From Patescibacteria group bacterium (GTDB lineage Bacteria > Patescibacteriota > Minisyncoccia > Phycocordibacterales > PALSA-1337), in the NCBI GenBank assembly GCA_038064415.1, contig JBBTTD010000001.1, positions 13,738-77,737 on the forward strand: a stretch of 64,000 bases of DNA, written 5' to 3'. A model generated the notes under the pieces. That model did not search any database. It was not told the origin of the DNA and saw only the letters and a program-made list of their open reading frames with translations. A program made the position numbers and the translations under genes. The number at the start of each line of letters is the position of its first letter. The first letter of the stretch is position 1. This document shows positions 2,130 to 55,302 of the stretch, piece after piece.

Positions 2130-2164
2130 CGCGGAATTAATCAAGACCTAACCTTCATTTTTCA

Positions 2165-2199
2165 GATGTTTGAATGTTTGAATGTTTGAATGCTATAAT
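2165..2199 (+). promoter_or_regulatory. Three tandem 8-bp repeats (ATGTTTGA) abutting a TATAAT -10 box, 6 nt upstream of the ATG at 2206
   Basis: Sequence gATGTTTGAATGTTTGAATGTTTGAATGcTATAAT occupies the -35 position. It is a candidate operator or activator site and implies a leaderless or very short-leader transcript for the receiver gene. Confidence 0.45.
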
Positions 2200-2205
2200 A
2201 TCACC

Positions 2206-2991
2206 ATGCCCCTACCACTCAAAAAGGAAAAAGTTTTAGTTATTGAGAGTGATGCCATATTTGGCAAGAAAATCGTTGATAACTTAAAAACACAGGGTTA
2301 CAATGTCCAGCTTTTTAATGATGGTATTGAAGGATTAAAAGCTATTTCTGATTTTACGCCCAATCTAGTTTTAGTGAATATTATCTTACCAAGCATTGAT
2401 GGTTACGCGATCCTCGCGAAGAAAAATGCTGATCAATCTTTGGCGAAAATTCCGTTGTTTCTGCTTTCCACACAAGGAATACCGATAGATATGGCCAAGA
2501 TACCTCAAGGTTCGGTTACAGAATTTATTTTAGATCTTCATGCTGATGTCGCGGAAATATTAAATAAGGTTGATAAGCTTTTTGGATATTCTGCTGGCGG
2601 ACAAGTTTCTGATTCTCAAGTCGTAAAGAAGAAAATACTTTGGGTTGAGGATGATAAGTTGATTGGCACGATCCTCAGCAAAAAGTTGATTGCTTCTGGT
2701 TTTGATCTAATTCACGCGAAAAATGGCGAAGAAGCCATGGCACAACTTGCCATTGTTGTCCCAGATGCGATTGTGCTTGATCTGATGATGCCTGGCATGA
2801 GTGGATTTGATATTCTCCAAAAAATTAGAGCCGATCAGCGCTTGAAGCAAATTTCCATAATGGTTCTTTCTAACATAAATAAGCAAAGTGACATTGAAAG
2901 GGCGAAATTACTTGGTGCCAAAAAGTTCTTGGTCAAGGCGGCGGTCTCGCTTGATGATATAGTATCTGAAGTTAAAAAGCTGTGTGAATGA
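2206..2991 (+). CDS. Tandem receiver-domain protein (pseudo-REC + REC, no output domain)
   Basis: There are two CheY-like receiver domains. The first has N in place of the phospho-acceptor Asp (LVLVNIILPSIDG). The second is canonical (ILWVEDD ... DAIVLDLMMPGMSG ... K). The start is moved from 2182 to 2206 because 2182-2205 overlaps the -10 box. Confidence 0.75.
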   Translation: MPLPLKKEKVLVIESDAIFGKKIVDNLKTQGYNVQLFNDGIEGLKAISDFTPNLVLVNIILPSIDGYAILAKKNADQSLAKIPLFLLSTQGIPIDMAKIPQGSVTEFILDLHADVAEILNKVDKLFGYSAGGQVSDSQVVKKKILWVEDDKLIGTILSKKLIASGFDLIHAKNGEEAMAQLAIVVPDAIVLDLMMPGMSGFDILQKIRADQRLKQISIMVLSNINKQSDIERAKLLGAKKFLVKAAVSLDDIVSEVKKLCE

Positions 2992-3075
2992 AAATAGAGG
3001 TCCGACCCCCATTTCGGAAGACAGGATCAGACCTTAGCGCAGAATTACCTAAGGTTTTACATTCATTTTTCACAT

Positions 3076-3101
3076 AACACTTGTATTAAGATTCAAGTGT
3101 T
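3076..3101. promoter_or_regulatory. Inverted repeat AACACTTG-N10-CAAGTGTT upstream of uvrA (candidate operator)
   Basis: Perfect 8-bp arms about 70 nt upstream of the uvrA start. A TTGCGT-N17-TACCAT promoter-like pair lies downstream of it. Confidence 0.35.
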
Positions 3102-3172
3102 GCAATTGATTGTTGAACTCGGGGGAATTAACTTTGCGTTTTTGTCATTTTTGTGTTACCATCGCCCCACTT

Positions 3173-5899
3173 ATGTCTGTGACGCGTAAAAAAACAAAAT
3201 CCTCAAATTTAACTCCCAAAATCCATGAGTCAATTCGAGGTGAGGAAAAAATTATCGTTAAAGGCGCGCGTACGCACAATCTGAAGAACATAACTGTGGA
3301 AATGCCACGCAATACTTTGATCGCTATCACCGGCTTATCAGGTTCCGGTAAATCTTCTTTGGCTTTTGACACCATTTTTGCCGAAGGACAGCGTAGGTAT
3401 GTTGAATCTCTTTCTGCCTACGCTCGCCAGTTTTTGCACAAAATGCAAAAACCCGATGTTGATGAGATCGTCGGTCTTTCACCGGCTATTTCCATAGACC
3501 AAAAATCTCGTTCCAATAATCCGCGTTCAACCGTGGCTACGATTACTGAAATATACGATTATTTGCGTATACTTTTCGCGCGCGTTGGCAAGCCGCATTG
3601 TCTGACCTGCGGTCGGATAATTCACCGCATCTCACAGGAAGAGATTTTGAATACTATTTTGAGTACTGTTACCACCCGCGCCACAAACGCCAAAAAAGTT
3701 TATGGGGTAAGTATTAGTGACGCAAAAATCCGGATCTACGCGCCAGTCGTGGTTGGACGCAAAGGCGAATATTATCAAATGCTTTATGATCTGCTCGGCA
3801 AGGGCTATGATCGTGTTCGGATTGACGGGACTATCAAACGTCTACGAGATCAGATAGTCCTGGAGAAAAATAAAAAACACGATATTGATATTTTAATTGA
3901 TGAAATTTTTATTAGCGAATTCAATGATCCTAAACAGTTGGACAATGCTCGTGAGAGATTATCCGAATCCATTGAACGAGCGGTGCATGAAGCGGAAGGT
4001 TTGATTCGCATTGAATATCCGTGGGATTCTGTCATTTCCCCGGCCGCGGAAATCAAGGGTCAAACCATTAATTTGAAAGAAGACGATAAGACTATGGATT
4101 CCCGCTTTCGCGGGAACGACAACGGCGAAACCTTGATGTCCGTGAAATTCATGTGTCCTTATGACGGTTTTTCGTATCCTGAAATAGAACCGCGTTTGTT
4201 TTCATTTAATTCACCGTATGGTGCTTGCACCGCCTGTAATGGTCTCGGTACTGAAGGATTATTCGCTGAAACAATCTGTAAAGTTTGTAATGGTGTTCGT
4301 CTACGCGATGAAGCTTTGCATGTCAAGATTGACGGCAAAAATATCGTTGACACGACTTCATTATCTATTGAAAAGGCAATTTTATATTTTGAAAAAATAA
4401 AACTGACTGACGCGGAAAAAGAAATTTCCAAAATCGTACTCAAAGAGATTCAAGCACGGCTTTCATTCATGGTAAATGTCGGGATTGAGTATCTGACGCT
4501 TGATCGGCGCGCTAATACTCTTTCCGGCGGGGAAGCTCAACGCATCCGTCTAGCTTCTCAACTTGGCTCCGGCTTGGTCGGCGCGCTTTATGTCCTAGAT
4601 GAGCCGACGATCGGTTTACATCAACGCGACAATGATCGTCTGATAGGGACTTTGATAAAACTTAGAGATATTGGCAATACCATAATAGTGGTTGAACACG
4701 ATGAAGACACTATGTTTGCTTCAGATTACATTATTGATATTGGTCCTGGCGCCGGAGTACACGGTGGCAAAGTCGTAGTCTCTGGATATCTTGACGATCT
4801 GGTTTCCGCCAAGAAAAATCCTTCCGGTTCATTGACTCTCGCTTATCTGCGAGGCGAGAAAAAGATTGATTTACCTCAAAAAAGGCGAGAACCAAAGGGT
4901 AAAATCACAGTGCGAGGCGGTCAAGTCTTCAATATTAAGGATTTGAACATAGATTTACCACTGGGCTGTTTGAATGCGATTACTGGAGTTTCTGGATCGG
5001 GGAAATCTTCCTTTATGTATGAAATTCTTCATAAGAATTTATCGGCGCGATTGGAGATGAGACATCGAAGCGATAAACCGATAAATTGCAAAGAATTTAA
5101 AGGTTCGGAATATGTTGGCCGTGTTATCTTGATTGATCAATCACCAATCGGTCGAACACCAAGATCAAATCCGGCAACCTATACCGGGGCTTGGACGCAT
5201 ATTCGCGACTTGTTTGCTTCAGAGCCGGAGGCGCGAGCGCGCGGTTGGGGCGCGGGGAGGTTTTCTTTTAATCGTCCCGGCGGTCGTTGTGAGGCCTGCG
5301 AAGGTAATGGCGAGATTGCCGTGGAAATGCATTTTTTGCCGACGGTTTATGTAACTTGCGATGTCTGCAATGGCAAACGCTTTACCAAAGAAACCCTAGA
5401 AATTCATTATCGTAAAAAAAATATTCATCAGATTTTGGATTTGACTATTGAAGATGGCTTGGAATTTTTCAAAGATATTCCAGTTGTTGAAGATCGCTTG
5501 CAAAGCATGATGGATGTCGGCTTAGGATACGTGAAGCTCGGTCAATCAGCCACGACTCTTTCAGGCGGTGAGGCACAGCGCGTCAAGATTTCTTCTGAAT
5601 TGTATAGAGCTCATCTTCAAAAAACGATTTATTTATTGGACGAGCCAACAGTTGGTCTGCATTATGAAGATGTTAAAAAATTGATTGATATTTTGCAAAA
5701 ATTAGTTGAAAAGGGGAATACGGTTGTTGTCATTGAACACAATCTTGATTTGGTTAAAAATGCCGATTATGTTATTGACATTGGTCCTGATGGTGGCGAG
5801 CGTGGCGGAAAAATTGTCGCCAAAGGCACGCCAGAAGATGTTGCCCGAAGTGAGAAATCATATACTGGGAAGTATCTGAAAGTGGCATTGAAGAAATGA
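3173..5899 (+). CDS. uvrA: Excinuclease ABC subunit A (UvrA)
   Basis: Two ABC ATPase modules (GLSGSGKSS, GVSGSGKSS; LSGGEAQR signature motifs twice) and zinc-finger Cys clusters. The start is set at the internal Met MSVTRKK, where homology begins. Confidence 0.9.
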   Translation: MSVTRKKTKSSNLTPKIHESIRGEEKIIVKGARTHNLKNITVEMPRNTLIAITGLSGSGKSSLAFDTIFAEGQRRYVESLSAYARQFLHKMQKPDVDEIVGLSPAISIDQKSRSNNPRSTVATITEIYDYLRILFARVGKPHCLTCGRIIHRISQEEILNTILSTVTTRATNAKKVYGVSISDAKIRIYAPVVVGRKGEYYQMLYDLLGKGYDRVRIDGTIKRLRDQIVLEKNKKHDIDILIDEIFISEFNDPKQLDNARERLSESIERAVHEAEGLIRIEYPWDSVISPAAEIKGQTINLKEDDKTMDSRFRGNDNGETLMSVKFMCPYDGFSYPEIEPRLFSFNSPYGACTACNGLGTEGLFAETICKVCNGVRLRDEALHVKIDGKNIVDTTSLSIEKAILYFEKIKLTDAEKEISKIVLKEIQARLSFMVNVGIEYLTLDRRANTLSGGEAQRIRLASQLGSGLVGALYVLDEPTIGLHQRDNDRLIGTLIKLRDIGNTIIVVEHDEDTMFASDYIIDIGPGAGVHGGKVVVSGYLDDLVSAKKNPSGSLTLAYLRGEKKIDLPQKRREPKGKITVRGGQVFNIKDLNIDLPLGCLNAITGVSGSGKSSFMYEILHKNLSARLEMRHRSDKPINCKEFKGSEYVGRVILIDQSPIGRTPRSNPATYTGAWTHIRDLFASEPEARARGWGAGRFSFNRPGGRCEACEGNGEIAVEMHFLPTVYVTCDVCNGKRFTKETLEIHYRKKNIHQILDLTIEDGLEFFKDIPVVEDRLQSMMDVGLGYVKLGQSATTLSGGEAQRVKISSELYRAHLQKTIYLLDEPTVGLHYEDVKKLIDILQKLVEKGNTVVVIEHNLDLVKNADYVIDIGPDGGERGGKIVAKGTPEDVARSEKSYTGKYLKVALKK

Positions 5900-5962
5900 A
5901 GAAGACACTTTTTCGATTAAAATCAAAAGCGAAATTACCCAGTGTAAGACAATATTATTCCC

Positions 5963-7261
5963 ATGAAACGTCAAGCGATTATAAAACTGAAAATTCCAGA
6001 TACTCCTGGTGTCTATACATTTAGGGATTATAAAAAAAGACCGATATATATTGGTCGCGCGACTTCCATTAAAGATCGTGTTAAAAGCTATTTTTCTGAT
6101 GATCTTATGAATACGCGCGGTCCGCGAATAGTTGATATGATCACTAAGGCTAAATCTTTAAATTGGCAAGTTACTGATTCCGTGCTTGAAGCGATTATTT
6201 TAGAAAGCAAATTGATCAAAAGGTATCAACCTATATGCAATGTTGACGAGCGTGACGACAAAAGTTCACAATATGTGGTGATAACTGATGAGCTCTGGCC
6301 AAGGGTTTTTCTGGAGCGTGTCCGAGATTTTGATTCGCTTCGCTCCAGTCTGGAAAATTCATCGCATCAGCGAGAGCGTCTCAAATATTCCGTCAAGAAA
6401 TATTTTGGTCCATACCCGCATGGCGGACTGATCAAAGAAGTCCTAAAAATTCTGCGTAAACTTTTTCCGTTTAAGGATAAGAAGTCTTTTGATTCTCGTC
6501 ACGAAGCGTTTTATCAAGCATTAGGGAGATCTCCCGATCAGGATGACAATAATGCTCTAAAAAAATATCTTATGACAATTAAGTATCTAATTCTTTTCTT
6601 TGAAGGTAAGAAACAAAAAATCAGAAAACAGGTTGAACGAGAGATGAATTTGCGGGCCAGAGAATTACGATTTGAAGAAGCACAGCAGAGTAAAAGGATG
6701 TTGTATGCGCTTGACCACATAAATGACATTGCTCTGATAAAAGAAGAGAGATTACGAGTTTCAAATCATTCCTCCGCTGTGTCTGCAAATTCGGAATTAT
6801 TGCAAAGTAACGGATTTCGTATTGAGGCTTATGACATCGCTCATTTATCCGGTACTAATGTAGTTGGGGCTATGGTTGTTTCAATTGATGGAGAGTTTGT
6901 GCCATCAGAATATCGTAAGTTCAAAATTTCTCGGCAGAAAAATGATGATGTGGCGGGGCTCAAGGAAATTCTTACGCGCCGGTTGAATCATCCAGAGTGG
7001 GCATACCCGGATCTAATAGTTGTTGATGGCAATAAAGTCCAAGTTAGTTGTGCTGAAAATATTTTAAAGGTTCGTAGGATTGACATTCCCGTCGTGGCGG
7101 TTACGAAAGATCAAAGGCATAAAGCAATAGAATTGATTGGACATCCAACACTTATTTCTAAATATAAAAAGCAAATTATTACTTTAAATAGGAAAGCTCA
7201 TAGGTTTGTTATATCGTTTCATAGATCAAGCAGGAACAAATCTTTTAAGAATTTTAAATAA
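5963..7261 (+). CDS. uvrC: Excinuclease ABC subunit C (UvrC), short form lacking the C-terminal HhH
   Basis: N-terminal GIY-YIG (PGVYTF ... IYIGRA ... RVKSYF), a UvrBC-interaction region and an RNase-H-like endonuclease domain (YDIAHLSG ... DLIVVDGNKVQV). Only 432 aa. Confidence 0.8.
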   Translation: MKRQAIIKLKIPDTPGVYTFRDYKKRPIYIGRATSIKDRVKSYFSDDLMNTRGPRIVDMITKAKSLNWQVTDSVLEAIILESKLIKRYQPICNVDERDDKSSQYVVITDELWPRVFLERVRDFDSLRSSLENSSHQRERLKYSVKKYFGPYPHGGLIKEVLKILRKLFPFKDKKSFDSRHEAFYQALGRSPDQDDNNALKKYLMTIKYLILFFEGKKQKIRKQVEREMNLRARELRFEEAQQSKRMLYALDHINDIALIKEERLRVSNHSSAVSANSELLQSNGFRIEAYDIAHLSGTNVVGAMVVSIDGEFVPSEYRKFKISRQKNDDVAGLKEILTRRLNHPEWAYPDLIVVDGNKVQVSCAENILKVRRIDIPVVAVTKDQRHKAIELIGHPTLISKYKKQIITLNRKAHRFVISFHRSSRNKSFKNFK

Positions 7262-7462
7262 TCTTGATTATGAATAAGTGATAGATTTCAAATCTCCTTC
7301 TAGGTTGTACACACTTTACTTCATTTTTTCCCGCCTATTCTGCTATACTATAGTTATCATTTTAATAATCAAATCAAATGCAATTTCAAACAGGTATTTT
7401 AGATAGAACTCGCTTAGTCTCAAACCTCCTGATGTCAATACTGGCTAGTAAGTTGATTTAGT

Positions 7463-28752: not shown

Positions 28753-29098
28753 AATTAAAGTTACATATTAATTACGACACGATTATTTATATTTGTGAGC
28801 TTGCAAAAAATTATCATATACGATTAAGATCTTTTCCTAATTGTATTTTTATCCACAGCTTCAAATGCTTGACAATTTTTTCGTATCTGATAGGGTACCA
28901 ACAACTTCGCAGATTGTGTTCTGCCTTAGCGGAGGATTATATAGGCCAGTATAACCCTACCCAGTGTTTATCACATCAATATAAGTATGTGAATTTAATA
29001 GCCGTTTTTTGAAAAAAACGGATTTTTTGCGTGATTACCAAAAGTATGGAAAAGTCAGATCAAATTTTGACTTAGGATTAATAACTTTTAATAAAATC

Positions 29099-32000
29099 AT
29101 GACTACCGCTTTTCGTCCGAAGAAATATTTTTCTAGTTATCAAGCACCTTTGACTGAAATGCCAAACTTGGTTGAAGCGCAATTGCTTTCATTCACACAT
29201 CTTGTTGAAAAGGGCATAGTTGGTCTTTTGGATGAATTTTCCCCGATTGAAGATTATGCTGGAAAAAAGTTTGAACTATCCATCGGCTCACCAGAACTTC
29301 AGCGTCCAAAATTTGATGAGCATTACGCGAAAGATAATAAGCTTAACTATGATGGTCAGATCAAGGTCAAGGTCACGCTCAAAAATAAAGTTTTAAATGT
29401 GGTCAAAGAACAAGAAATGTTTTTAGCTGATATTCCGCTAATGACTGACCACGGAACTTTCATCATCAATGGTGTTGAGCGCGTCATCACCCCTCAACTC
29501 GCTCGTTCCTTCGGAATCTTCTTTACGAGCAACGAAGTCAAAGGTAAAAATTATTTTGGCGCTAAAATCATTCCCGCTCGCGGAGTTTGGATGGAAATAG
29601 AAACTGACACTGACGGCACAATATATTGTCGTATTGATCGCAAGCGAAAATTCCCGGTAACCTCGCTTTTGCGTATTTTAGGCGCGGAGACAAATGAAGC
29701 TATCGTAGGTCTTTTTAAGGGTAATTTAGACGCTCAAAAGGTTATAGAGCTTACTTTGAGTAAGGACCATACCAAAACCAAGGATGAATCTTATATGGAG
29801 ATTCATAAAAGACTTCGTGATGGTGATTTAGCGACAGCTGAAAATGCTCGAAATTTCGTCCAGACACTCCTCAAAGAAGATCGTTATGATATTTCTAGAG
29901 TTGGCCGTTTTCGTTTCAACAAGCGTTTCGGTAAATCAATGGAAGAGAAAGAGCTTGAGCGACGCACACTATCTATTGATGACATTACGACGACTTTGGT
30001 TCATATTGTGACTTTGACGACAACTCCTGATACTCAACCAGACGATATTGATCACCTCGGCTCGCGCCGTGTCCGTTATGTTGGGGAATTACTTGAACAG
30101 CGTTTTCGTCTTGGTCTGACACAGATGAAGAGAAACATTCAGGATAAAATGTCCACTGTTGAGCCTGATGTTACTTTGCCTGTTTCATTTATATATCCTA
30201 GACCGCTTCAAGCACGTATCAAAGAGTTTTTCACCACCAACCAACTCTCTCAATTTATGGAGCAGGTGAATGCTCTTGGCGAAATTGAAAATCTCCGTCA
30301 GCTCACAGCACTTGGACCCGGAGGACTTTCGCGTGAGCGCGCTGGTTTTGAAGTTCGCGATGTTCATCCTTCACACTATGGCAGACTTTGTCCGATTCAC
30401 ACACCAGAAGGCCCAAACATTGGTCTAGTTTTGCGTTTGGCTATGTATTCTCGCATTAACGACTTCGGTATGATTGAAACTCCGTATGCCAAGGTTAAAG
30501 ACGGCAAGATAACCAAGGAAATTGTTTATATGAATGCTTTGGAAGAAGAAAATTTCCGCATTGCCCATGCCGCCACACCATTTGATGCTAGCGGAAATAT
30601 TACAGTTGATGAAGTGGAAGTCCGTATCAACGGTAAACCTGCTATGGCTACAAAAAAAGAAGTAAACTATATTGATGTCGCGACAAATCAAGCATTTTCT
30701 ATCGCCACTTCTCTTATTCCTTTTGTTAACCATGATGATGCTAATCGAGCACTCATGGGATCAAACATGTATAAACAAGCTACCCCTTGCTTAGTCCCAG
30801 AAGCACCATTCGTTGCTACCGGCATTGAAGCAAAAGCAGTCGCTGATACTGGCAGACTTGTTATTGCTCCTGAAGATGGTGAAGTTACTCATGTTGACGC
30901 CAAAAGAATTGTTTTCGTTACTAAAAAAGGCAAGAAGCATGAATATAAGCTAGTTCTTTTTTCCCGAACCAATGGTTTTACTGCTTTCCATCAGCGTCCG
31001 ATTGTTTCGGCAGGCGATAAAGTCAAAAAAGGAGATGTTCTGGCGGATACTTCAACTTCCGACAAAGGTCAAATTGCTCTTGGTCACAACGCTCTAGTGG
31101 CTTTCATGTCATGGTCAGGAAATAATTATGAGGACGCTATCATCCTTTCTGAAAGAGTAGTCAAGAATAGTAAGTGGAGTTCTATTCATATTGAAGAATT
31201 TGTAGTCAATGTCCGTGATACCAAACTTGGCCCAGAAGTTACTACTTGTGATATTCCCAATGTCGGTGAAGCCAAGCTTAAAAATCTTACTGAAGAAGGT
31301 ATCATCAGAATTGGCGCGGAAGTTAGACCTGGTGATATTTTAGTCGGAAAAATTTCTCCCAAAGGAGAGACACAACTTACGCCTGAAGAGCGTTTACTCC
31401 GTTCTATTTTCGGTGAAAAGGCGCGTGATGTGAAAGATACTTCCAAGCGCATGGAAAATGGCAAGCGCGGTCGTGTTATTTCCGTAAAGATTTTCTCACG
31501 CGAAAAAGGCGACAAACTAGAATCAGGAATTATCAAGAAAATTTACGTGGAGATTGCTCAAGTTCGTAATATTTCAGTTGGTGATAAAATGGCTGGTCGC
31601 CACGGCAACAAAGGTGTCATCTCAAAAATTCTTCCAGAAGAGGATATGCCATACATGGAAGATGGAAAACCGATTGATGTTATTTTGACCCCACTCGGCG
31701 TGCCTTCTCGTATGAACCTAGGCCAGATTCTAGAACTGCATCTTGGTTTGGCGGCCAATGAACTCGGATATCAAGCTATTGTTCCTCCCTTTGCCGGAGC
31801 GACTGATGCGGAGATTAAGGAGGAATTGGTTAAAGCTGGTTTTGATGCTTCTGGAAAAATGAAACTCCGAGACGGTAGGACGGGTGAACATTTTAGTCAG
31901 CCAATTGCGGTCGGTTACATGTATATTCTCAAATTACATCACATGGTGGAAGACAAAATTCACATGCGTTCAATTGGACCTTACTCTTTGATTACTCAAC

Positions 32001-32278
32001 AACCATTAGGCGGTAAGGCACAAGGTGGAGGCCAGCGTTTCGGAGAAATGGAAGTCTGGGCTTTGCTCGGTCACGGCGCCGCTCACACACTCCGTGAAAT
32101 ACTTACTGTTAAATCAGATGATATCATTGGTCGTTCGCAAACATTTGACGCTATCGTTAAAGGTGAGCGTCCGAAAGCGCCAAATCTACCAGCCTCATTC
32201 AATGTGCTTCTGAAAACCCTTCGCGGTCTGGCGTTAAATGTTGAGCTTATCAATAAACCTCGCGTTGAGGAGGAATAA
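29099..32278 (+). CDS. rpoB: DNA-directed RNA polymerase subunit beta
   Basis: Full set of RpoB conserved regions (GERVITPQLARS, the rifampicin-cluster region, NMQRQAVPL-like motifs, the C-terminal GGQRFGEMEVWAL). The start is placed at the Met at 29099; ORF 29009 extends further upstream. Confidence 0.9.
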   Translation: MTTAFRPKKYFSSYQAPLTEMPNLVEAQLLSFTHLVEKGIVGLLDEFSPIEDYAGKKFELSIGSPELQRPKFDEHYAKDNKLNYDGQIKVKVTLKNKVLNVVKEQEMFLADIPLMTDHGTFIINGVERVITPQLARSFGIFFTSNEVKGKNYFGAKIIPARGVWMEIETDTDGTIYCRIDRKRKFPVTSLLRILGAETNEAIVGLFKGNLDAQKVIELTLSKDHTKTKDESYMEIHKRLRDGDLATAENARNFVQTLLKEDRYDISRVGRFRFNKRFGKSMEEKELERRTLSIDDITTTLVHIVTLTTTPDTQPDDIDHLGSRRVRYVGELLEQRFRLGLTQMKRNIQDKMSTVEPDVTLPVSFIYPRPLQARIKEFFTTNQLSQFMEQVNALGEIENLRQLTALGPGGLSRERAGFEVRDVHPSHYGRLCPIHTPEGPNIGLVLRLAMYSRINDFGMIETPYAKVKDGKITKEIVYMNALEEENFRIAHAATPFDASGNITVDEVEVRINGKPAMATKKEVNYIDVATNQAFSIATSLIPFVNHDDANRALMGSNMYKQATPCLVPEAPFVATGIEAKAVADTGRLVIAPEDGEVTHVDAKRIVFVTKKGKKHEYKLVLFSRTNGFTAFHQRPIVSAGDKVKKGDVLADTSTSDKGQIALGHNALVAFMSWSGNNYEDAIILSERVVKNSKWSSIHIEEFVVNVRDTKLGPEVTTCDIPNVGEAKLKNLTEEGIIRIGAEVRPGDILVGKISPKGETQLTPEERLLRSIFGEKARDVKDTSKRMENGKRGRVISVKIFSREKGDKLESGIIKKIYVEIAQVRNISVGDKMAGRHGNKGVISKILPEEDMPYMEDGKPIDVILTPLGVPSRMNLGQILELHLGLAANELGYQAIVPPFAGATDAEIKEELVKAGFDASGKMKLRDGRTGEHFSQPIAVGYMYILKLHHMVEDKIHMRSIGPYSLITQQPLGGKAQGGGQRFGEMEVWALLGHGAAHTLREILTVKSDDIIGRSQTFDAIVKGERPKAPNLPASFNVLLKTLRGLALNVELINKPRVEEE

Positions 32279-32283
32279 TTCTT

Positions 32284-32323
32284 AGCGAGGTCCGACCTTG
32301 ATATATTGAGGTCGGACCTCGCT
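32284..32323. repeat. Palindromic element family 1 (AGCGAGGTCCGACCTTGatatatTGAGGTCGGACCTCGCT)
   Basis: A perfect hairpin directly after the rpoB stop. It shares the GCGAGGTC(C/G)GACCTCGC core with 37762-37786. Confidence 0.8.
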
Positions 32324-32343
32324 GAAATCTAATTTAAACTATT

Positions 32344-32886
32344 ATGAATAAAAAAATTATTTTGGGGGTTATAATTATAGCGATATTAGTCGTTGCTGGT
32401 TGGTATCTATTCAAACCACGCCTTGCGTGTTGGCCATATTGTCCTAATATGACTAATCAGAATAGAGAGGAGATAAAACAATCGGCACTTGAAGTACAAA
32501 ATAATCAGATTAATAAGTCAAATAATTCTTTTTCTGTTCAAGATCTTGCTTATATTAATCAAAAATACGGATTTTCTCTTATTTTTCCAATTTCATGGAC
32601 AGATTATCAGGTTAATCAGAGAAATCAGGCAATGACAGAATTTGGGTTTTATGTCCCAGATGCCTTTCCAAAATTTCAAGCTCTATTTTATGTAGGTGTT
32701 ACTAAAGATGAACAAAGTTGTGAAGAATGGTCGAATCCTAAGACTGATGAGCCACACGATTATTGTATTATAAAAGTTGATGGAAATATCTATCATTATG
32801 GGAAAGCACAAGACATTATTCCAATACTTGACCGAAAATATCAAGATATTGATTTGATCATAAAAACATTTAAATTTATTAAATAA
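32344..32886 (+). CDS. Hypothetical membrane-anchored protein inserted between rpoB and rpoC
   Basis: 180 aa with an N-terminal TM helix and no recognisable domain. It lies in the normally tight rpoB-rpoC junction. Confidence 0.5.
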   Translation: MNKKIILGVIIIAILVVAGWYLFKPRLACWPYCPNMTNQNREEIKQSALEVQNNQINKSNNSFSVQDLAYINQKYGFSLIFPISWTDYQVNQRNQAMTEFGFYVPDAFPKFQALFYVGVTKDEQSCEEWSNPKTDEPHDYCIIKVDGNIYHYGKAQDIIPILDRKYQDIDLIIKTFKFIK

Positions 32887-32895
32887 ATTATCACC

Positions 32896-36564
<3,669 letters not shown>

Positions 36565-36749: not shown

Positions 36750-37724
36750 ATGCGCAAGATAATTATTAAAGAAGGCCCCCTTGTCTTTCTTCGGAATGTC
36801 TTGTCTATGGAAATCATCGCCGCCCTATTCTTTTTTGGCTTGTCATTTATAAGTAATTATGGCCAATTGTACCAAAATTGGGGTTTTTCTGATTACATCA
36901 GATTTGACCTTTTTGAAATATTTATCTTTTCTGTCTTTCAGTTAGTATATATCTCACTTTTATTTTTTGATTGGTATTTTACCAACTATGAAATTAACGG
37001 AAAGGAGATAATCAAAAAATCAGGTTTACTATTTCGCCGTCGTAAAGCTGTAAGTTTGGCTGATGTAGCTTCAGTAGAAATAAACCAGTCGCCGATAAGT
37101 CGGATGATGTCTCATGCCACCATCATTCTTGAACACGCCAATGGTCATATGACAAAAATCAGAAATGTCTCTAATTTTGATGAATATATTTACCTAATCA
37201 AGAGTATGGTTCAAGAAGCTTCTGGACGGACCTTGACACAAGATCCGAAAGTTTTATTGGAAAAGGGCGAAGGATTTTTTATTGAATTTAAACAGACGCT
37301 TCGTTATGACGCGCGCAAAGGTGAAATTAGCAGGGAATTAGAGAAAATGGTTCTCAAAACGATTGTTGCCTTTCTGAACGCAGAAGGAGGTACTCTACTG
37401 ATTGGTGTAAATGATGATGCTGAAATTGTTGGTCTAGATAACGATTACAAAACACTGACCAAAAAAGATCGTGATGGGTTTGAGAATCATATGACTATGT
37501 TAGTAAAAACTCTGATTGGTTTGTCATTCACAAAATATGTCACGGTGCGGTTTGATTCAATTGACGGTAAAGATATTTGCATTGTGATAGTTAAAGAAGG
37601 TCACAAACCGGCGTATCTACACAATGGTGATAAAAAAGAAGACTTCTTTGTGCGAGTAGGGAACTCAACGCAACCTTTTTCTATGAGTGAGGCGGAGGAG
37701 TATATCAAGACGCATTGGAAATAA
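36750..37724 (+). CDS. Membrane bPH (YdbT/DUF304-like) domain fused to a Schlafen/AlbA_2 (PF04326-like) putative nucleic-acid-binding domain
   Basis: Two TM helices and a bacterial PH-like segment, then GEGFFIEFKQTL ... TIVAFLNAEGGTLLIGVNDDAEIVGLDND, the diagnostic AlbA_2/SLFN core. Confidence 0.5.
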   Translation: MRKIIIKEGPLVFLRNVLSMEIIAALFFFGLSFISNYGQLYQNWGFSDYIRFDLFEIFIFSVFQLVYISLLFFDWYFTNYEINGKEIIKKSGLLFRRRKAVSLADVASVEINQSPISRMMSHATIILEHANGHMTKIRNVSNFDEYIYLIKSMVQEASGRTLTQDPKVLLEKGEGFFIEFKQTLRYDARKGEISRELEKMVLKTIVAFLNAEGGTLLIGVNDDAEIVGLDNDYKTLTKKDRDGFENHMTMLVKTLIGLSFTKYVTVRFDSIDGKDICIVIVKEGHKPAYLHNGDKKEDFFVRVGNSTQPFSMSEAEEYIKTHWK

Positions 37725-46530: not shown

Positions 46531-49482
46531 ATGATTACACTTATGAAAAATTCTGGCGAAAAAGTCAATCCAAAAGCGTTAAAATTACCTGCTTATGACC
46601 ATTCAAAGATAGAACCTAAGTGGCAAAAACTTTGGGAAAAACAAAAGTTTGACCAGGCCAGAGAAGATCCAAAGAAAAAGAAGTTTTACGGTTTAATTGA
46701 ATTTCCGTATCCATCCGGCGAAGGACTGCATGTTGGACATATTCGCAGTAATACAGCCATGGATATTATTGCTCGAAAGCGTCGAAGAGAAGGCTATGAA
46801 GTTTTGTTTCCTATCGGTTGGGATGCTTTTGGTCTGCCAACCGAAAATTACGCTATTAAGACTGGTATTCAGCCCGCCATAGTTACCAAAAAAAACACTG
46901 ATACATTTCGCCGACAATTGAAAGCGCTGGGTTTTTCTTTTGATTGGTCGCGTGAAATAGATACGACTGATCCCAAATACTATAAATGGACGCAGTGGAT
47001 ATTTTTGCAATTCTTTAAAAAAGGGCTGGCTTATAAAAAGAAAATGGCTATCAATTGGTGTCCAAAGGATATGATTGGTCTAGCAAATGAAGAAGTTGTA
47101 AATGGTTGTTGTGAACGATGTGGCACGCCCGTGGAAAAACGAGAGAAGGAACAATGGATGCTGGCTATTACTAAATATGCCGATCGATTAGACAGAGATT
47201 TAGATGAAGTTGATTTTCTGGAAAAGATTAAAATTCAACAAAGGAATTGGATAGGGAAGAGTGAGGGTGCGGAGATTGGGTTTAAGTTTGTCATTCCCGC
47301 CCTTGATGGAAGTCGAGGACATGCTCCAACGGGAATCCAAGATCACATTGCGAATTTTGTCTTGCTTCATGGATTTACCGCCACGCCAGATGATGATTTT
47401 CACCCTTGGCTCAAGAAAAAACTTGAAAATTTAGGATATAAAGTGCAAGCGCCGAAATTGCCGAATACTGAAAAACCCACAGAAAATGAGCAGGTTGAAT
47501 TTGTCCTAGATAATGTCAAGTTTGATGAAAATACTGTCTTACTTGGTCATAGTCTTGGTTCTGTGGTTGCTTTAAAGGTTTTAGAAAAACTTAATAAAAA
47601 GATCGCAGGACTTGTGACTGTCGGTGGATTTATTGATACAAACTTCAAAGATCATGACAGAAATTTTGCTGAAAGATTTGGATGGGACTTTGATTTTAAT
47701 AAAATAAAATTAAATGTTAGTTTTATTCGTGTTTTACACGATAAAAATGATGTAGCGATTACTGATGGTCAAGCCAAGAGATTAGCCACTGCTTTGGGAG
47801 TAAATGTTATTGAGCGCATGGCTAATGAGGGTCATTTTTGCGCAAAAGAAGAACCAGCTATATTTGAAGTCATCATACCAAGTATAAAAGTCTTCACGAC
47901 TCGCCCAGATACATTATTTGGCGTGACTTATCTGGTTCTCGCGCCTGAACATCAATTGGTAAAAGAACTTTTGCCAAATGTTCAAAATAAGAAAGAAGTT
48001 GAAGATTATATTTCCAAAACTAAAAAGGAAACTGATATTGAACGCGCTGACGCTTCAAAAGAAAAAACAGGCGTTGAGTTGAAAGGAATTAAGGTTATAA
48101 ATCCAGCAAATAACGAAGAACTACCAGTTTGGATTGCTGATTATGTTTTGGTTGACTACGGCACTGGCGCTGTAATGGCTGTGCCGGCGCATGATGAGAG
48201 GGATAAACAATTTGCCCAAAAATATAGTCTGCCAACCAAAGAAATTATTCTCGCAGATAAAAAAGAAATAATTACTGAATTTGGAAAATCAGTTACCACC
48301 TACAAACTTCGTGACTGGGTGTTTTCACGCCAAAGATACTGGGGTGAGCCCATCCCTGTAGTGCATTGCGAACAATGTGGGATTGTTCCCGTGCCAGAAA
48401 AAGATTTGCCGGTTAAATTACCGAAAGTAAAAAATTATCAGCCGACGCAGACTGGAGAATCACCGCTAGCTTCAATTGGAAAGTGGGTGAATACTAAATG
48501 TCCGAAATGTAAAGGCAAAGCTCGTCGCGAAACAGATACAATGCCTCAATGGGCTGGCTCAAGCTGGTATTATCTGCGCTACGCTGATTCAAAAAATAGT
48601 AAAGTTTTTGCCGGTAAAGATAGACTGAAGTATTGGACGCCAGTAGACTGGTACAACGGTGGAATGGAGCATACAACATTGCATCTGCTTTATTCTCGTT
48701 TTTGGCATAAATTCTTATTTGATTTAGGTTTAGTGCCGACAAAAGAACCATATCAAAAAAGAACCTCACATGGACTCATTCTAGCCGAAGGTGGCGCTAA
48801 AATGTCAAAATCAAGAGATAATATTGTCAGTCCCGACGATATTGTGAAGATTGTTGGCGCGGACTCTTTGCGTCTTTACGAAATGTTTATGGGACCCTTT
48901 GACCAACCAATCGTCTGGAATACGGATAATATTGCCGGGGTCAGGAGGTTTATTGAGCGAGTGTGGAAAATGAGAGAAAAAGTCGTTCAAAAAATGGACG
49001 AAAAGATTGATGATTTTGTGTTGATCAACAAGATTATCCACAAAGCTATCAAAAAAGTCAGCGACGATATTGAAGCGATGAGATTTAATACTGCCATCAG
49101 CGCGCTCATGATTACATTCAATGAACTTGAAAAATTCAGAGTTGTTGATATAGAACAATATGGAGTTTTTCTTAAATTACTGGCACCATTTGCGCCACAT
49201 GTGACTGAAGAATTGTGGGCATCTCTGAATCATAAAAATTCTATTCATACGACTGAATGGCCGATGTATGATCCAGTTTTGGCGATTGATTCACAGACAA
49301 CTATCGTTGTCCAAATAAATGGCAAAATGCGTGGCTCATTCACTGTTCCAATTGATATCAGTAAGGAAGAATTAGAAAATCGCGCGCGGACATTACCAGA
49401 ATCCGCGAAGTGGTTGGAAGGGAAGAGTATCATGAAGATAGTTGTTGTTCCCAATAAGTTAGTCAATTTTGTCATAAAGTAG
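46531..49482 (+). CDS. leuS: Leucyl-tRNA synthetase with an inserted alpha/beta serine-hydrolase (YdeN/RBBP9-like) domain
   Basis: Class I motifs (HVGH, KMSKS), a CP1 editing domain (TTRPDTLFGVTYLVLAPEH) and a C-terminal anticodon-binding region. About 195 extra residues (aa 254-449) lie between NWIGKSEGAEIGF and the editing domain. They include LLHGFTATPDDDFHPWL, GHSLG (GxSxG), a conserved Asp and ANEGHF. Confidence 0.85.
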   Translation: MITLMKNSGEKVNPKALKLPAYDHSKIEPKWQKLWEKQKFDQAREDPKKKKFYGLIEFPYPSGEGLHVGHIRSNTAMDIIARKRRREGYEVLFPIGWDAFGLPTENYAIKTGIQPAIVTKKNTDTFRRQLKALGFSFDWSREIDTTDPKYYKWTQWIFLQFFKKGLAYKKKMAINWCPKDMIGLANEEVVNGCCERCGTPVEKREKEQWMLAITKYADRLDRDLDEVDFLEKIKIQQRNWIGKSEGAEIGFKFVIPALDGSRGHAPTGIQDHIANFVLLHGFTATPDDDFHPWLKKKLENLGYKVQAPKLPNTEKPTENEQVEFVLDNVKFDENTVLLGHSLGSVVALKVLEKLNKKIAGLVTVGGFIDTNFKDHDRNFAERFGWDFDFNKIKLNVSFIRVLHDKNDVAITDGQAKRLATALGVNVIERMANEGHFCAKEEPAIFEVIIPSIKVFTTRPDTLFGVTYLVLAPEHQLVKELLPNVQNKKEVEDYISKTKKETDIERADASKEKTGVELKGIKVINPANNEELPVWIADYVLVDYGTGAVMAVPAHDERDKQFAQKYSLPTKEIILADKKEIITEFGKSVTTYKLRDWVFSRQRYWGEPIPVVHCEQCGIVPVPEKDLPVKLPKVKNYQPTQTGESPLASIGKWVNTKCPKCKGKARRETDTMPQWAGSSWYYLRYADSKNSKVFAGKDRLKYWTPVDWYNGGMEHTTLHLLYSRFWHKFLFDLGLVPTKEPYQKRTSHGLILAEGGAKMSKSRDNIVSPDDIVKIVGADSLRLYEMFMGPFDQPIVWNTDNIAGVRRFIERVWKMREKVVQKMDEKIDDFVLINKIIHKAIKKVSDDIEAMRFNTAISALMITFNELEKFRVVDIEQYGVFLKLLAPFAPHVTEELWASLNHKNSIHTTEWPMYDPVLAIDSQTTIVVQINGKMRGSFTVPIDISKEELENRARTLPESAKWLEGKSIMKIVVVPNKLVNFVIK

Positions 49483-49755: not shown

Positions 49756-50793
49756 ATGGCAACATCAACAATCTCATTTAAACCCAAGCAGATCGTCAAA
49801 CGTCTTCTCGCTTCATTACCTGATCGCGCTCGTGAAGTTATCATATATCGTTATGGACTTGGTTCTGATACCAAGCGTATGACACTTGACGCAATTGGAA
49901 AGAAATATGGTATTACTCGCGAACGAGTTCGTCAGATAGAAAACTACGCGCTCGGAATTATCCGCAAATCTGACGAGTATCGGTTGGAAAAAGCAATTTT
50001 TGCTGAACTAGAGACCCTGCTTCATGCTTTGGGTGGAGTTGTCGTGGAAGATGATTTCCTTGGTCATGTCTCAAAGGACAAGAGTCTTCAAAATCATGTT
50101 CATTTTCTCTTAGTTATTGGTGAACCTTTCAAAAAAAGAAAAGAAGATGATGAGTTCAATCATCGTTGGCATGTCAATGAGGAACTTTCTACTCAAGTAG
50201 AAGATGCCCTACGCAAACTTTATAACAATCTTAATACGCAAGATCTTTTGCCTGAATCAGAGATTATCAACAAATTTCTTCAGCATTTAGAGAGTGTTTC
50301 TGAACGCTACAAGAATCAAGAGATTATGAAACGCTGGTTGGCATTATCTAAATCAATCGGAAAGAATGCTTTAGGAGATTGGGGTGCGGCAAATTCTTCA
50401 AATATCAAGACCAAGGGTATGCGTGATTATGCTTTTCTAGTTATCAGAAAACATGGTTCGCCGATCCATTTTCGTGATGTAGCCAAGCAGATTATGGCGA
50501 TGTTTAACAAGAAAGCTCATGTTGCCACGACTCACAATGAGTTGATTAAAGATCCTCGCTTCGTGCTAGTCGGTCGTGGTTTATATGCTTTGGCAGAATG
50601 GGGTTATGCGCCAGGAATTGTACGAGATGTTATACGACTTGTTATACAGAAAAATGGTCCAATGACCAAAAATGAGATAATCTCTAAAGTCCTGAAGGAA
50701 CGCTATGTTAAGGAAAACACCATTGCGGTAAATCTCCAAAACCCGAAGTATTTCAAAAAAGACAAGGATGGTAAGTATTCGGTGGTTGCGTAA
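49756..50793 (+). CDS. Sigma-70 region-4 HTH fused to HARE-HTH-like domain(s)
   Basis: N-terminus VIIYRYGLGSDTKRMTLDAIGKKYGITRERVRQIENYALGIIRK matches sigma-70 region 4.1/4.2. The C-terminus (FRDVAKQI ... DPRFVLVGRGLYALAEWGY) matches the HARE-HTH fold of the RNAP delta subunit. Confidence 0.5.
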   Translation: MATSTISFKPKQIVKRLLASLPDRAREVIIYRYGLGSDTKRMTLDAIGKKYGITRERVRQIENYALGIIRKSDEYRLEKAIFAELETLLHALGGVVVEDDFLGHVSKDKSLQNHVHFLLVIGEPFKKRKEDDEFNHRWHVNEELSTQVEDALRKLYNNLNTQDLLPESEIINKFLQHLESVSERYKNQEIMKRWLALSKSIGKNALGDWGAANSSNIKTKGMRDYAFLVIRKHGSPIHFRDVAKQIMAMFNKKAHVATTHNELIKDPRFVLVGRGLYALAEWGYAPGIVRDVIRLVIQKNGPMTKNEIISKVLKERYVKENTIAVNLQNPKYFKKDKDGKYSVVA

Positions 50794-50805
50794 GAAATAA
50801 AAAAA

Positions 50806-50850
50806 CCAAGGTCGGACCTTAGCTCCAAATCACCCAAGGTCCGACCTTGG
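50806..50850. repeat. Palindromic element family 1 (exact reverse complement of the 20336-20379 copy), flanked by an A-run and a T-run
   Basis: AAAAAACCAAGGTCGGACCTTagctccaaatcaccCAAGGTCCGACCTTGGTTTTTTT has the shape of a bidirectional terminator. Confidence 0.8.
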
Positions 50851-50932
50851 TTTTTTTAAATAGTCCTCGGCAATAAAAACATGTGTGCACTATTATTGTT
50901 TTTGGTTAAGCTGTTCATGTTATAATAGTGGC

Positions 50933-52219
50933 ATGCCCGTTGAACAATTAATTCCGTCATTGGTATCGGATTTTAAATCAAATATTCTGCCACAGGCGAT
51001 TCAATTCATCATAACTATTTCGCCGATACTTTTTGTCTTTATTATGGCCAAGATTTTTTGGCCAATCTGGGTCAGTTATGTAAGGTCCAAGAATTTTCTA
51101 TCATTGAAATATACAACGCTTGAGATAAAGTTACCTAAAGACACATTCAAGTCTCCATTAGCGATGGAAGTATTTCTGCAATCTTTGCACAACACCGCGG
51201 ACGGAAGTCTCTATGCCCAATATTGGAAAGGCGAGACCCGGCCATGGTATTCTTTGGAGTTGGTTTCCATTGAAGGACGAGTTAAGTTTTTTATTTGGAC
51301 GGAAGATAGACGCAAAGGTGGAGTGATATCAGGATTGTATTCACAGTTTCCAGGAGTTGAAGTTCATGAAAATGAAGATTATGCGCGATCAGTACATTTT
51401 GATCCAAACACAATGAAAATCTGGGGATGCGAGTTTAAATTTACCAGAGAAGATCCTTACCCAATTAAAACCTATGTTGATTATGGACTTGATAAAGATC
51501 CAAAAGAGGAGTTCAAAGTAGATCCAATGACGCCTTTGATTGAATTTTTAGGAAATGTCGGAACTAATCAACAGATTTGGTTACAAATCTTGTTTCGCGC
51601 CCACAAAAAAGAGCAAAGAAAACCTGGGCATTGGTTTAAAAAGACGGATTTGTGGCAAGATGAAGCAAAGGAATTAGTTAATGAAATTTTAATCCGTGAC
51701 GCCAAGACCAAAGTGTCGGGTGAAATAAATCCAGATACCGGATACAGTAAATCACCGACGATCTCCAAAGGTGAACAAAGTATCGTTGAATCAATTGAGA
51801 GAAGCGTGACTAAACTTGCTTTTGATACTGGCATCAGGGCGCTCTATATTTCTAAAAAAGAAGTATTTGATGGACCTTTCGGAATAGGTGGAATTATTGG
51901 CAATATGAAGCATTTCAATACAGAAAGTCTCAATGGTTTCAAACCTAATGGGGATGTTTGGCATAGTAGACTAGACGATCCTTGGAAGGATTATAATAAT
52001 ATTCGTCGAGACCGCTATGCTCGTGAAGCTTTGGCTACATACAAACGTCGATCATTTTTTTATCCCGCGCTGTATCCATTTAGTAGGAGTAAATCTATGA
52101 TACTAAATACCGAAGAATTGGCTACGGTATATCATTTTCCAGGATCCGTCGCCGCTACCCCATCACTGGATCGTATTCCATCAAAGAAAGCCGAGGCACC
52201 TTCAAATCTGCCAGTCTAA
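50933..52219 (+). CDS. Hypothetical membrane-anchored protein
   Basis: N-terminal TM helix, then a 400-aa soluble region with no Walker motif and no recognisable domain. The start is trimmed to MPVEQLIP. Confidence 0.45.
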   Translation: MPVEQLIPSLVSDFKSNILPQAIQFIITISPILFVFIMAKIFWPIWVSYVRSKNFLSLKYTTLEIKLPKDTFKSPLAMEVFLQSLHNTADGSLYAQYWKGETRPWYSLELVSIEGRVKFFIWTEDRRKGGVISGLYSQFPGVEVHENEDYARSVHFDPNTMKIWGCEFKFTREDPYPIKTYVDYGLDKDPKEEFKVDPMTPLIEFLGNVGTNQQIWLQILFRAHKKEQRKPGHWFKKTDLWQDEAKELVNEILIRDAKTKVSGEINPDTGYSKSPTISKGEQSIVESIERSVTKLAFDTGIRALYISKKEVFDGPFGIGGIIGNMKHFNTESLNGFKPNGDVWHSRLDDPWKDYNNIRRDRYAREALATYKRRSFFYPALYPFSRSKSMILNTEELATVYHFPGSVAATPSLDRIPSKKAEAPSNLPV

Positions 52220-54402: not shown

Positions 54403-55302
54403 ATGTTGGGTCATCTACTTCTATTTAGTTTTTTAACTTTATTGTATAATATGGTTCCAATGAATCACTTAATTACCATAACCAAGTCCGATGGCACTAA
54501 ACAGCTTTTTGAAGAAGAAAAACTGGTAAGTTCACTCAAGCGTGCTGGCGCATCCAACCAAGCTATTGATGAAATAGTTGAACAAGTAGAAAATAGTATC
54601 AAAGAAGGAATGACGACCAGTGAGATTTATGGCCATGCCTTTTCACTTTTGCGCAAGCACTCTGTTCATATAGCAGTCAAATATTCAGTTCGGCGAGCAT
54701 TGGCGGAGCTCGGACCTGACGGTTTTCCATTTGAGCGATTTGTGGCTCGAATATTCAATACTTGGGGATATGAGACGCTTACAGATCAACATGTTATGGG
54801 TTCATGTATTGAACACGAAGTTGATGTAATAGCTTGGAAAAGTGGGGTTTTAGCAATGGTTGAAGCAAAATTTCACAATGAATTTGGATTGAAATCTGAT
54901 GTCAAAGTGGCTCTCTATGTCAAAGCACGCTTTGATGATATCAGTGGTAATGCTTTTGATTTTGGTGGTATGAAGCAAAAACTATCGGAACGTTGGTTAT
55001 TTACTAATACAAAATTTACTGATCAAGCGATCAAATACAGTACTTGCAATAATCTCAAACTGATTGGCTGGAATTATCCTGCTGATAATAATTTACACAC
55101 AATCATTGAGAAGTATAGACTTCATCCGATTACTTGTGCGACTAGTCTCAACCACCAACAGAAAAAGGATTTGGTCGGTAGAAATATTTTGACTTGTTCT
55201 GATCTTGTCAGACAGCCGGAAATCCTAAAGTTGATTGGGATTCGTCAAGATTCCGATATCCAGAGAATTTTGGCTGAAGTGAGTTTGCTTACAGAAAAAT
55301 AG
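54403..55302 (+). CDS. ATP-cone domain fused to an Mrr-like (PD-(D/E)xK) restriction-endonuclease domain
   Basis: The ATP-cone segment (ITKSDGTKQLFEEEKLVSSLKRAGAS) is followed by FERFVARIF ... EHEVDVIAWK ... VEAKF, the Mrr_cat pattern. Confidence 0.55.
   Translation: MLGHLLLFSFLTLLYNMVPMNHLITITKSDGTKQLFEEEKLVSSLKRAGASNQAIDEIVEQVENSIKEGMTTSEIYGHAFSLLRKHSVHIAVKYSVRRALAELGPDGFPFERFVARIFNTWGYETLTDQHVMGSCIEHEVDVIAWKSGVLAMVEAKFHNEFGLKSDVKVALYVKARFDDISGNAFDFGGMKQKLSERWLFTNTKFTDQAIKYSTCNNLKLIGWNYPADNNLHTIIEKYRLHPITCATSLNHQQKKDLVGRNILTCSDLVRQPEILKLIGIRQDSDIQRILAEVSLLTEK

Follow-up and report, generated by a model that had tools for sequence, protein, structure and literature searches.

A gene at positions 49756 to 50793 on the forward strand of the window, the whole 64,000-nucleotide stretch of patescibacterial DNA analysed here, encodes a 345-aa protein in which a sigma-70 region 4 is followed by four tandem winged helices. 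It could well be an essential general factor specific to the CPR, which acts at promoters or on the nucleoid by binding promoter DNA and/or RNA polymerase (RNAP). We favour this reading tentatively. The essentiality of a gene of the same architecture in Southlakia epibionticum, the housekeeping context of the family, and a conservation above that of the neighbouring genes point to a core function with DNA, and probably with RNAP.

Domain architecture of the 345-aa protein

In the ORF list of the window, whose G+C content is ~39%, the ORF starts with ATG. Its N-terminus, MATS.ISFKPKQ, is the common start of the homologs and of this ORF. An exact sequence look-up identified the protein as GenBank MEK7609546.1. 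The gene and its modules are as follows.

49756..50793, forward strand: gene for the 345-aa protein with sigma-70 region 4 (sigma-4) and four winged helices (ORF; Pfam Sigma70_r4 and HARE-HTH; at least 8000 homologs; exact sequence look-up)
49777..49977, forward strand: sigma-70 region 4 module (residues ~8-74; regions 4.1 and 4.2; HTH recognition helix TRERVRQIE)
49981..50178, forward strand: winged-helix unit A (residues 76-141), variable, acidic (model secondary structure; hhalign; charge)
50179..50397, forward strand: winged-helix unit B (residues 142-214), variable, near neutral (model; hhalign; charge)
50407..50616, forward strand: HARE-HTH winged helix (residues 218-287), the most conserved module
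50617..50790, forward strand: C-terminal winged-helix unit D (residues 288-345), conserved, basic (model; invariant residues; pI; hhalign)

In Pfam, Sigma70_r4 matches residues 17-70 (E 3.3e-15, 55.8 bits against a gathering score of 24.1) and HARE-HTH (PF05066) matches residues 222-282 (E 2.2e-7, 31.6 bits against a gathering score of 25.9). An earlier sequence-only reading had placed sigma-70 regions 4.1/4.2 in the first ~75 residues and a HARE-HTH signature in the C-terminal part. Both matches are above threshold, and this domain observation is confirmed far beyond chance. In the translation, residues 41-71 read RMTLDAIGKKYGITRERVRQIENYALGIIRK and residues 238-284 read HFRDV...KDPRFVLVGRGLYALAEWGY. 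The N-terminal module has the 4.1 and 4.2 HTH of the sigma-70 family, and the HARE-HTH unit shows the winged-helix order helix-helix-helix-strand-strand in the predicted structure (residues 222-279). Sigma regions r2, r3, and r1.2 gave no Pfam match even at E<=1, in agreement with the claim that region 4 occurs here without regions 2 and 3. No LuxR/GerE family is among the Pfam matches at E<=1, and the top match is Sigma70_r4 with region 4.1 included. The reading had named a generic LuxR/GerE-type N-terminus and a C-terminus of no known fold as grounds for giving it up; Pfam, NCBIfam, and structure profiles gave neither.

The NCBIfam matches of the N-terminal part are confined to the region-4 ends of the RpoD, RpoS, SigB, and MzaA models, and the scores of the whole protein are 24-63 bits against cut-offs of 240-800. 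Sequence matches in PDB are exclusively sigma region 4. The module has the same fold and belongs to the same sequence family, over 4.1 and 4.2, as region 4 of RpoD/SigA and RpoS (group 1/2 sigma-70). Solved sigma-A region 4 domains show 33-48% identity to the protein and an identical recognition helix, TRER(V/I)RQIE. Unlike group 1/2 sigma-70 proteins, the 345-aa protein has no regions 1.2, 2, and 3, and its region 4 stands at the N-terminus, ahead of the four winged helices. A sigma-70 factor has region 2, which serves core binding and -10 recognition, and usually region 3 as well. Since regions 1.2, 2, and 3 are absent, the protein would neither bind core through region 2 nor melt the -10 element. 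Judged from its sequence, it is not a sigma factor, because regions 2 and 3 are missing.

The AlphaFold2 model, built on an alignment of 86 family members, consists of sigma-4 and then four tandem winged helices (pLDDT 91.3, pTM 0.75), and the pTM suggests a fairly fixed domain arrangement. The sigma-4 helices are at residues 10-18, 23-33, 44-51, and 55-71. Each of the following four units has the order helix-helix-helix-strand-strand, and the third is the HARE-HTH. The elements are H79-91, E95-97, H98-105, H109-121, E126-128, and E137-139 in unit A, H142-157, H167-176, H188-195, E201-203, and E209-211 in unit B, and H289-300, H305-315, H320-327, E333-335, and E340-343 in unit D. The family profiles of the units are weakly related to one another in hhalign, with probabilities of 70% for A and B, 82.5% for B and D, and 42% for HARE and D, as would be expected of related winged helices arranged in tandem. 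The sequence-only reading had left open a plural, "HARE-HTH-like domain(s)", and the four units with their weakly related profiles bear the plural out.

RNAP delta is the nearest solved relative of the HARE-HTH unit, and it was the only PDB match of the profile of the C-terminal half. Structure comparison also gave generic winged helices of the I73R, forkhead, H1, and Z-alpha types. No full-length structural analog was found in PDB, where the matches are at the domain level only. The only multi-domain Foldseek matches were tandem winged-helix arrays, namely Rpc82/RPC62 of Pol III, Dcc1, ScpB, and UFL1-DDRGK1. Their TM-scores are ~0.2, they show no sequence kinship and have no sigma-4, and the resemblance is architectural only.

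The similarity to the Firmicutes RNAP delta subunit (RpoE) is real at the domain level, with a score of 28.5 bits for the low-GC RNAP delta model TIGR04567 at residues 221-283, under the cut-off of 42. The C-terminal tail of delta is long, acidic, and disordered. In contrast, the C-terminus of the 345-aa protein is a folded basic winged helix (pLDDT ~90, pI 9.9) with no acidic disordered tail. The protein is also twice the size of delta, carries sigma-4, and has a net charge of +17. It is neither delta nor a LuxR-type regulator.

Invariance was scored over 43 family members with an overall identity of 33-54%. The invariant positions are R32, T43, L44, G48, T54, R55, E56, R57, R59, and Q60 in the sigma-4 HTH, H238, F239, H260, N261, L263, L271, G273, R274, G275, Y277, G283, and G287 in the HARE-HTH, and T322, L327, and F333 in unit D. 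The recognition helix TRERVRQIE aligns to TRERIRQIE of E. coli sigma-70 and B. subtilis SigA. In this alignment, R55, E56, R57, R59, and Q60 correspond to R584, E585, R586, R588, and Q589 of E. coli sigma-70, which we take to be contacts to the -35 hexamer. These contacts were reportedly established by Campbell et al. in 2002 and by classic -35 suppressor genetics. The invariance of the recognition helix could alternatively be caused by a different conserved ligand. Sigma-4, HARE-HTH, and unit D are the most conserved modules, with a median pI of ~10. In units A and B the sequence is variable and the charge acidic to neutral, and unit A has a median net charge of -3 and the lowest conservation. 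This distribution suits nucleic-acid binding by the three basic, conserved modules, and units A and B between them suit the role of spacers or protein-interaction domains.

Distribution of the family

The combination of sigma-4 and HARE-HTH, which the sequence-only reading did not recognise as a described protein, is already in databases. It is found in a very large family named "sigma factor-like helix-turn-helix DNA-binding protein" at NCBI, and MEK7609546.1 is among its members. The name at JGI is at times "RNA polymerase delta subunit". A word-indexed search found at least 8000 homologs. The best 120 of them show 79-90% identity, have ~345 aa, and come from MAGs of Parcubacteria, Paceibacterota, or Minisyncoccia. 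An exhaustive search against 50%-identity representatives found 592 clusters at E<=1e-30, of which almost all are full length (340-380 aa). The 345-aa protein belongs to this CPR family by full-length homology and the same architecture. Among the matches listed from species genomes of GTDB, 17 full-length relatives were retained, and every one belongs to a CPR lineage (Paceibacterota, Kaiserbacteria, Doudnabacteria, and Peregrinibacteria among them); the matches listed are mostly ordinary sigma factors, and the phyletic census is incomplete. The metagenome scan revealed close relatives only. Several taxon labels of MAGs look unreliable, such as "Saccharibacteria" at 68% identity.

No functional study of the family was found in the literature searched, and nothing relevant was found there on HARE-HTH with CPR or on DUF8128. 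Bacterial HARE-HTH proteins with sigma-factor features were reportedly noted in a computational work by Aravind and Iyer in 2012.

No phage homolog was found, and the only plasmid homolog is distant and resides on a non-mobilisable plasmid. A mobile-element origin was rejected based on these observations.

Outside the CPR, only distant and longer proteins with the same domain order, sigma-4 and then HARE-HTH, were found. The plasmid gene is from Abditibacteriota and is annotated as "RpoD". Its product has 568 aa and 24% identity, and genes for a DrmMI/type IIG-like methylase and a DUF4007 protein lie downstream. The relative in Streptosporangium has 613-625 aa and 22% identity, and adjoins a generic SF1 helicase, with a methyltransferase nearby. 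A HelD/HelR identity of this helicase was rejected; it is a generic UvrD-family member far under the HelD/HelR cut-offs. These non-CPR proteins (about 570-625 aa, ~22-24% identity) thus adjoin methylases or helicases, not DUF8128, and their DNA-modification or defence settings hint at other uses of the architecture.

DNA-modification sensing has been proposed for many HARE-HTH proteins. The 345-aa protein might be such a sensor, or a defence-related factor, as the methylase, the helicase, and the methyltransferase near the distant relatives would suggest. MzaA, a sigma-70 family protein of the MZA anti-phage system, is moreover the best match of the sigma-4 segment both in NCBIfam and in PADLOC. 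Only region 4 matches MzaA, however, with 62.8 bits against a cut-off of 800 in NCBIfam and 31.5 bits in PADLOC, and the non-CPR relatives are only distantly similar and longer. Defence genes do not typically show essentiality, such high conservation, or a single-copy setting among housekeeping genes. This explanation is considered highly improbable. A known anti-phage defence system is not supported, the PADLOC match being the region-4 part of MzaA only.

The counterpart in Southlakia epibionticum

In Southlakia epibionticum ML1, SEML1_0294 encodes a 349-aa protein annotated as "RNA polymerase sigma factor RpoS" (Wang et al. 2023, PMC10633639, supplements). Its Pfam domains are Sigma70_r4 at 27-72 and HARE-HTH at 225-283, and its structural domains are 6-155 (tri-helical, with a sigma-70 template) and 156-215, 216-285, and 286-345 ("winged") (PMC10633639). 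Directly downstream on the same strand, SEML1_0293 encodes a T4CP-like protein of 921 aa, whose P-loop domain spans 361-795 (PMC10633639). The 921 aa are close to the sum of the DUF8128 and ATPase ORFs at one family locus, L017 (440 + 484 aa). SEML1_0293 is consistent with a DUF8128-ATPase fusion, its N-terminal 360 residues being without assignment in the source table.

SEML1_0294 resembles the 345-aa protein in length (349 vs 345 aa), in the Pfam domains and their positions, in the run of winged domains, and in the T4CP-type neighbour downstream. It differs in belonging to a different CPR class (Saccharimonadia) and in being followed by one 921-aa gene in place of the two genes, for DUF8128 and for the ATPase, of other lineages. 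That SEML1_0294 and the 345-aa protein are orthologous we infer from architecture and context only.

In the Tn-seq data, obtained in co-culture with the host, SEML1_0294 was essential in three of three analyses, with 1-2 insertions, and SEML1_0293 was non-essential and tolerated many insertions (PMC10633639). RpoD (SEML1_0063), with complete regions 1.2, 2, 3, and 4, was essential as well, and RpoD and SEML1_0294 are the only "sigma factors" in the gene table (PMC10633639). SEML1_0294 is not discussed in the main texts of the Cell 2023 (PMC10633639) and PNAS 2024 papers. A "split sigma", in which region 4 is supplied in trans to an RpoD without it, is rejected for Saccharibacteria, because RpoD of S. 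epibionticum has all four regions and is itself essential. In the 64-kb window, no other sigma-like protein was found.

The domain content makes an RNAP accessory factor, a sigma-4 competitor, and a regulator plausible functional options. As an anti-sigma-like decoy, the protein would take the beta-flap tip or the -35 elements from region 4 of RpoD, resulting in global tuning or repression of initiation. The full region 4.1 and 4.2 with conserved -35-reading residues, the lack of regions 2 and 3, and the coexistence with a complete RpoD that has its own region 4 are consistent with such competition. However, essentiality is rare for a pure antagonist, and four extra conserved winged helices would be superfluous for it. 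The essentiality of SEML1_0294 speaks against a protein that is no more than a decoy or a regulator of local genes, and we regard the decoy as quite improbable.

Genomic neighbourhood and proposed function

Two further features lie directly downstream of the gene.

50801..50857, no strand assigned: two G+C-rich hairpins flanked by A/T runs, which resemble terminators on either strand and separate the gene for the 345-aa protein from the DUF8128 gene (terminator scan and sequence)
50933..52219, forward strand: partner gene for a membrane-anchored DUF8128 (PF26449) protein, 428 aa from ATG at 50933; the listed ORF starts from GTG at 50885

As in the window, the family gene is immediately followed, on its own strand, by a DUF8128 gene in 85 of the 88 loci with room for one, in locus samples that are biased to Paceibacteria-like genomes. 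This adjacency is kept even in distant classes without other synteny. DUF8128 resembles the N-terminal part of VirB4, and it gave no match in PADLOC. The conserved pairing of the family with a VirB4-like DUF8128 protein appears to be undescribed in the literature searched.

The gene order in the window and in close relatives is leuS, the gene for the 345-aa protein, DUF8128, mltG, and mnmA. Family loci have a chromosomal housekeeping context, with leuS, mltG, mnmA, ftsZ/ftsA, and mreB. In loci L007-L012, L014, and L017, the order is secD, secF, the family gene, and DUF8128. The next gene there encodes a ~480-700-aa ATPase that combines TrwB_AAD_bind, TraG-D_C, and DUF87/HerA domains and in many cases has a treble-clef zinc finger as well. 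No T4CP-like ATPase was found within the 64-kb window, nor within +-10 kb in close relatives. In the flanking intergenic regions, Rfam gave only sub-threshold generic hairpin (miRNA-type) matches as structured RNA. A survey of T4SS genes in the CPR counted 5,713 VirD4-like T4CP homologs in 2,918 CPR genomes, mostly far from virB4.

Co-occurrence with RNAP genes had been proposed as a check by the sequence-only reading and was not seen. RNAP genes are absent within 6-8 kb from all 99 family loci, and rpoB/rpoC of the window, at 29009-36564, are 13 kb upstream of the gene. Linkage to RNAP genes was therefore rejected. The strongest signal is instead the downstream DUF8128/T4CP-like module, and the sole strongly conserved neighbour is a T4SS-type membrane protein, not a transcription gene.

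This neighbour raises the possibility of an adaptor for a translocase. The multi-HTH protein would bind DNA and hand it to a DUF8128-anchored, T4CP/VirB4-like hexameric ATPase, by analogy with relaxosome accessory proteins that work with T4CPs, the winged helix of FtsK gamma, and small terminases. The adjacency of DUF8128 across distant classes, its likeness to VirB4, the ATPase next in the secD-secF loci, and the length of SEML1_0293, which would fit a fusion of the two partners, are all in its favour. In S. epibionticum, however, the sigma-4 protein is essential and the adjacent T4CP-like gene is not, which indicates an essential function independent of that ATPase. The ATPase is missing from the surveyed surroundings in the window and in close relatives, and the terminator-like hairpin separates the gene from DUF8128 in the window. 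There is also no relaxase context, and the family is absent from phages and mobilisable plasmids. It is unlikely that handing over DNA is what the protein does.

Sigma-4-like HTHs occur in regulators. With its sigma-4-type HTH as a mere DNA-binding domain, the protein could be a gene-specific regulator of the adjacent DUF8128, T4CP, and secDF genes, and the same genes are indeed adjacent across loci. The protein is, however, conserved above its supposed targets. Its identity is higher each time than that of these genes, at 68 vs 44%, 40 vs 31%, and 35 vs 26%, and the full set for locus L001 is 68% against 60% for YchF, 51-57% for LeuRS, 44% for DUF8128, and 42% for MltG. In S. epibionticum, the counterpart is essential and its neighbour dispensable, and the N-terminal match is one to region 4 of primary sigma factors, 4.1 included, rather than to LuxR/GerE. 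Such local regulation has a low probability. The decoy, local-regulator, and DNA-modification-sensor readings are considered to be less likely.

The reading that we prefer is that of a general, essential factor with its place at promoters or on the nucleoid. In the protein, a duplicated region 4 (4.1 and 4.2) of the primary-sigma type is joined to four tandem winged helices in a basic polypeptide of ~345 aa. The sigma-4 module is predicted from its residues to bind -35-type (TTGACA-like) duplex DNA in the manner of sigma-A, and possibly also the beta-flap tip of RNAP. The HARE-HTH and unit D, both basic and highly conserved, may provide further contacts to DNA or RNAP, of the delta type. Units A and B, acidic and variable, may serve as spacers or protein-interaction surfaces.

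The protein may additionally bring DNA (or RNAP) to a DUF8128 and T4CP/TrwB-like membrane machine, a link that is predicted from the genomic coupling, which extends to the T4CP/TrwB-like ATPase in many classes of the CPR. As SEML1_0294 is essential and its T4CP-like neighbour is dispensable, a link to the membrane ATPase would not be its only job. A fully coupled form of this idea is an essential, stoichiometric RNAP/promoter factor of the CPR that, through sigma-4 (beta flap and/or -35 DNA) and the delta-like winged helices, physically ties RNAP or DNA at promoters to a VirB4/T4CP-like ATPase anchored in the membrane (DUF8128 and the ATPase). This form is distinctly unlikely. If it were true, the transcription apparatus of ultrasmall bacteria would be linked, in a way not known before, to a membrane motor derived from type IV secretion.

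The labels "RpoS", "RpoD", and "delta subunit" are wrong for this family and inflate the counts of sigma factors in CPR genomes. The near-obligate pairing with the DUF8128/T4CP-like module is a lead on the function of the ~5,700 "orphan" T4CP homologs in the CPR. Since a genetically tractable organism carries the gene, the question is directly testable. The CPR/Patescibacteria account for a large part of the diversity of bacteria and have tiny genomes with very few recognisable regulators. If the preferred reading is true, their handling of transcription or of the chromosome would have a lineage-defining component in an essential protein, kept throughout the radiation, that combines the -35-reading part of the primary sigma factor with a winged helix of the delta type.

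Neighbourhood of the gene in the window

The genes and intergenic elements around the gene for the sigma-4/HARE-HTH protein (target) are as follows, with positions in the window.

29009-32278, rpoB
32344-32886, 180-aa ORF between rpoB and rpoC
32896-36564, rpoC
36750-37724, bPH_2 and Schlafen AlbA_2 protein, just downstream of rpoC
46531-49482, leucyl-tRNA synthetase gene (leuS), product of 983 aa
49494-49600, long inverted repeat between leuS and the target gene, arms of ~27 nt, spacing of ~45 nt
50801-50933, twin hairpins with an A-run and a T-run at the flanks, a bidirectional terminator-like element, and an extended -10-like element
54403-55302, ATP-cone protein with a weak match to Mrr_cat (restriction endonuclease-like)

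The 180-aa ORF matches nothing in Pfam at a cut-off as loose as E<=10, and was not found in the family loci examined. Downstream of rpoC, a bacterial PH domain (bPH_2) is joined with a Schlafen AlbA_2 domain in one protein. In the leucyl-tRNA synthetase, an alpha/beta-hydrolase domain (PF06821, Ser_hydrolase; weak Abhydrolase_1) is inserted between the synthetase segments. The synthetase of one relative is 770 aa long, and this domain is not among its listed domains. The search of the inverted repeat against Rfam returned only sub-threshold matches to generic hairpins of the miRNA type.

The twin hairpins lie between the target gene and the gene for DUF8128, its membrane-anchored partner. A TGnTATAAT-like extended -10 element is present only ~8 nt upstream of the DUF8128 ATG, and this short distance hints at a leaderless mRNA for DUF8128. 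The ATP-cone/Mrr_cat gene is syntenic 3' of mnmA in 34 of the 99 loci that carry target homologs.

Relatives outside Patescibacteria

The order of sigma-4 followed by HARE-HTH is also observed in distant proteins outside Patescibacteria, which are annotated as "RpoD" or unannotated. Their neighbourhoods in the two loci below are of DNA-modification or defence-like character.

L165, Abditibacteriota plasmid AP024153.1, 26-8699: DrmMI/type IIG methylase and DUF4007
L024, Streptosporangium, 6-7461: methyltransferase, 853-aa unknown protein and SF1 helicase

Association with secD-secF and a T4CP-like ATPase

In several classes of Patescibacteria (loci L007-L017), secD-secF is located directly upstream of the target homolog. 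In one family member, the representative protein P0152 (659 aa), the gene call fuses SecF to the sigma-4/HARE-HTH protein. This fusion may be either an artefact of the gene call or a genuine membrane-tethered form.

The DUF8128 gene is adjoined by the gene for a T4CP-like ATPase in the following loci.

L007, 8373-10151, T4CP-like ATPase
L008-L012, L014 and L017, equivalents

These ATPases start at the Walker A region, without the transmembrane part, and have a treble-clef zinc finger at the C-terminal end. The T4CP-like ATPase matches the PADLOC model "mad8" (E 4e-16). Together, the T4CP-like ATPase and DUF8128 look like a split VirB4/T4CP-like protein.
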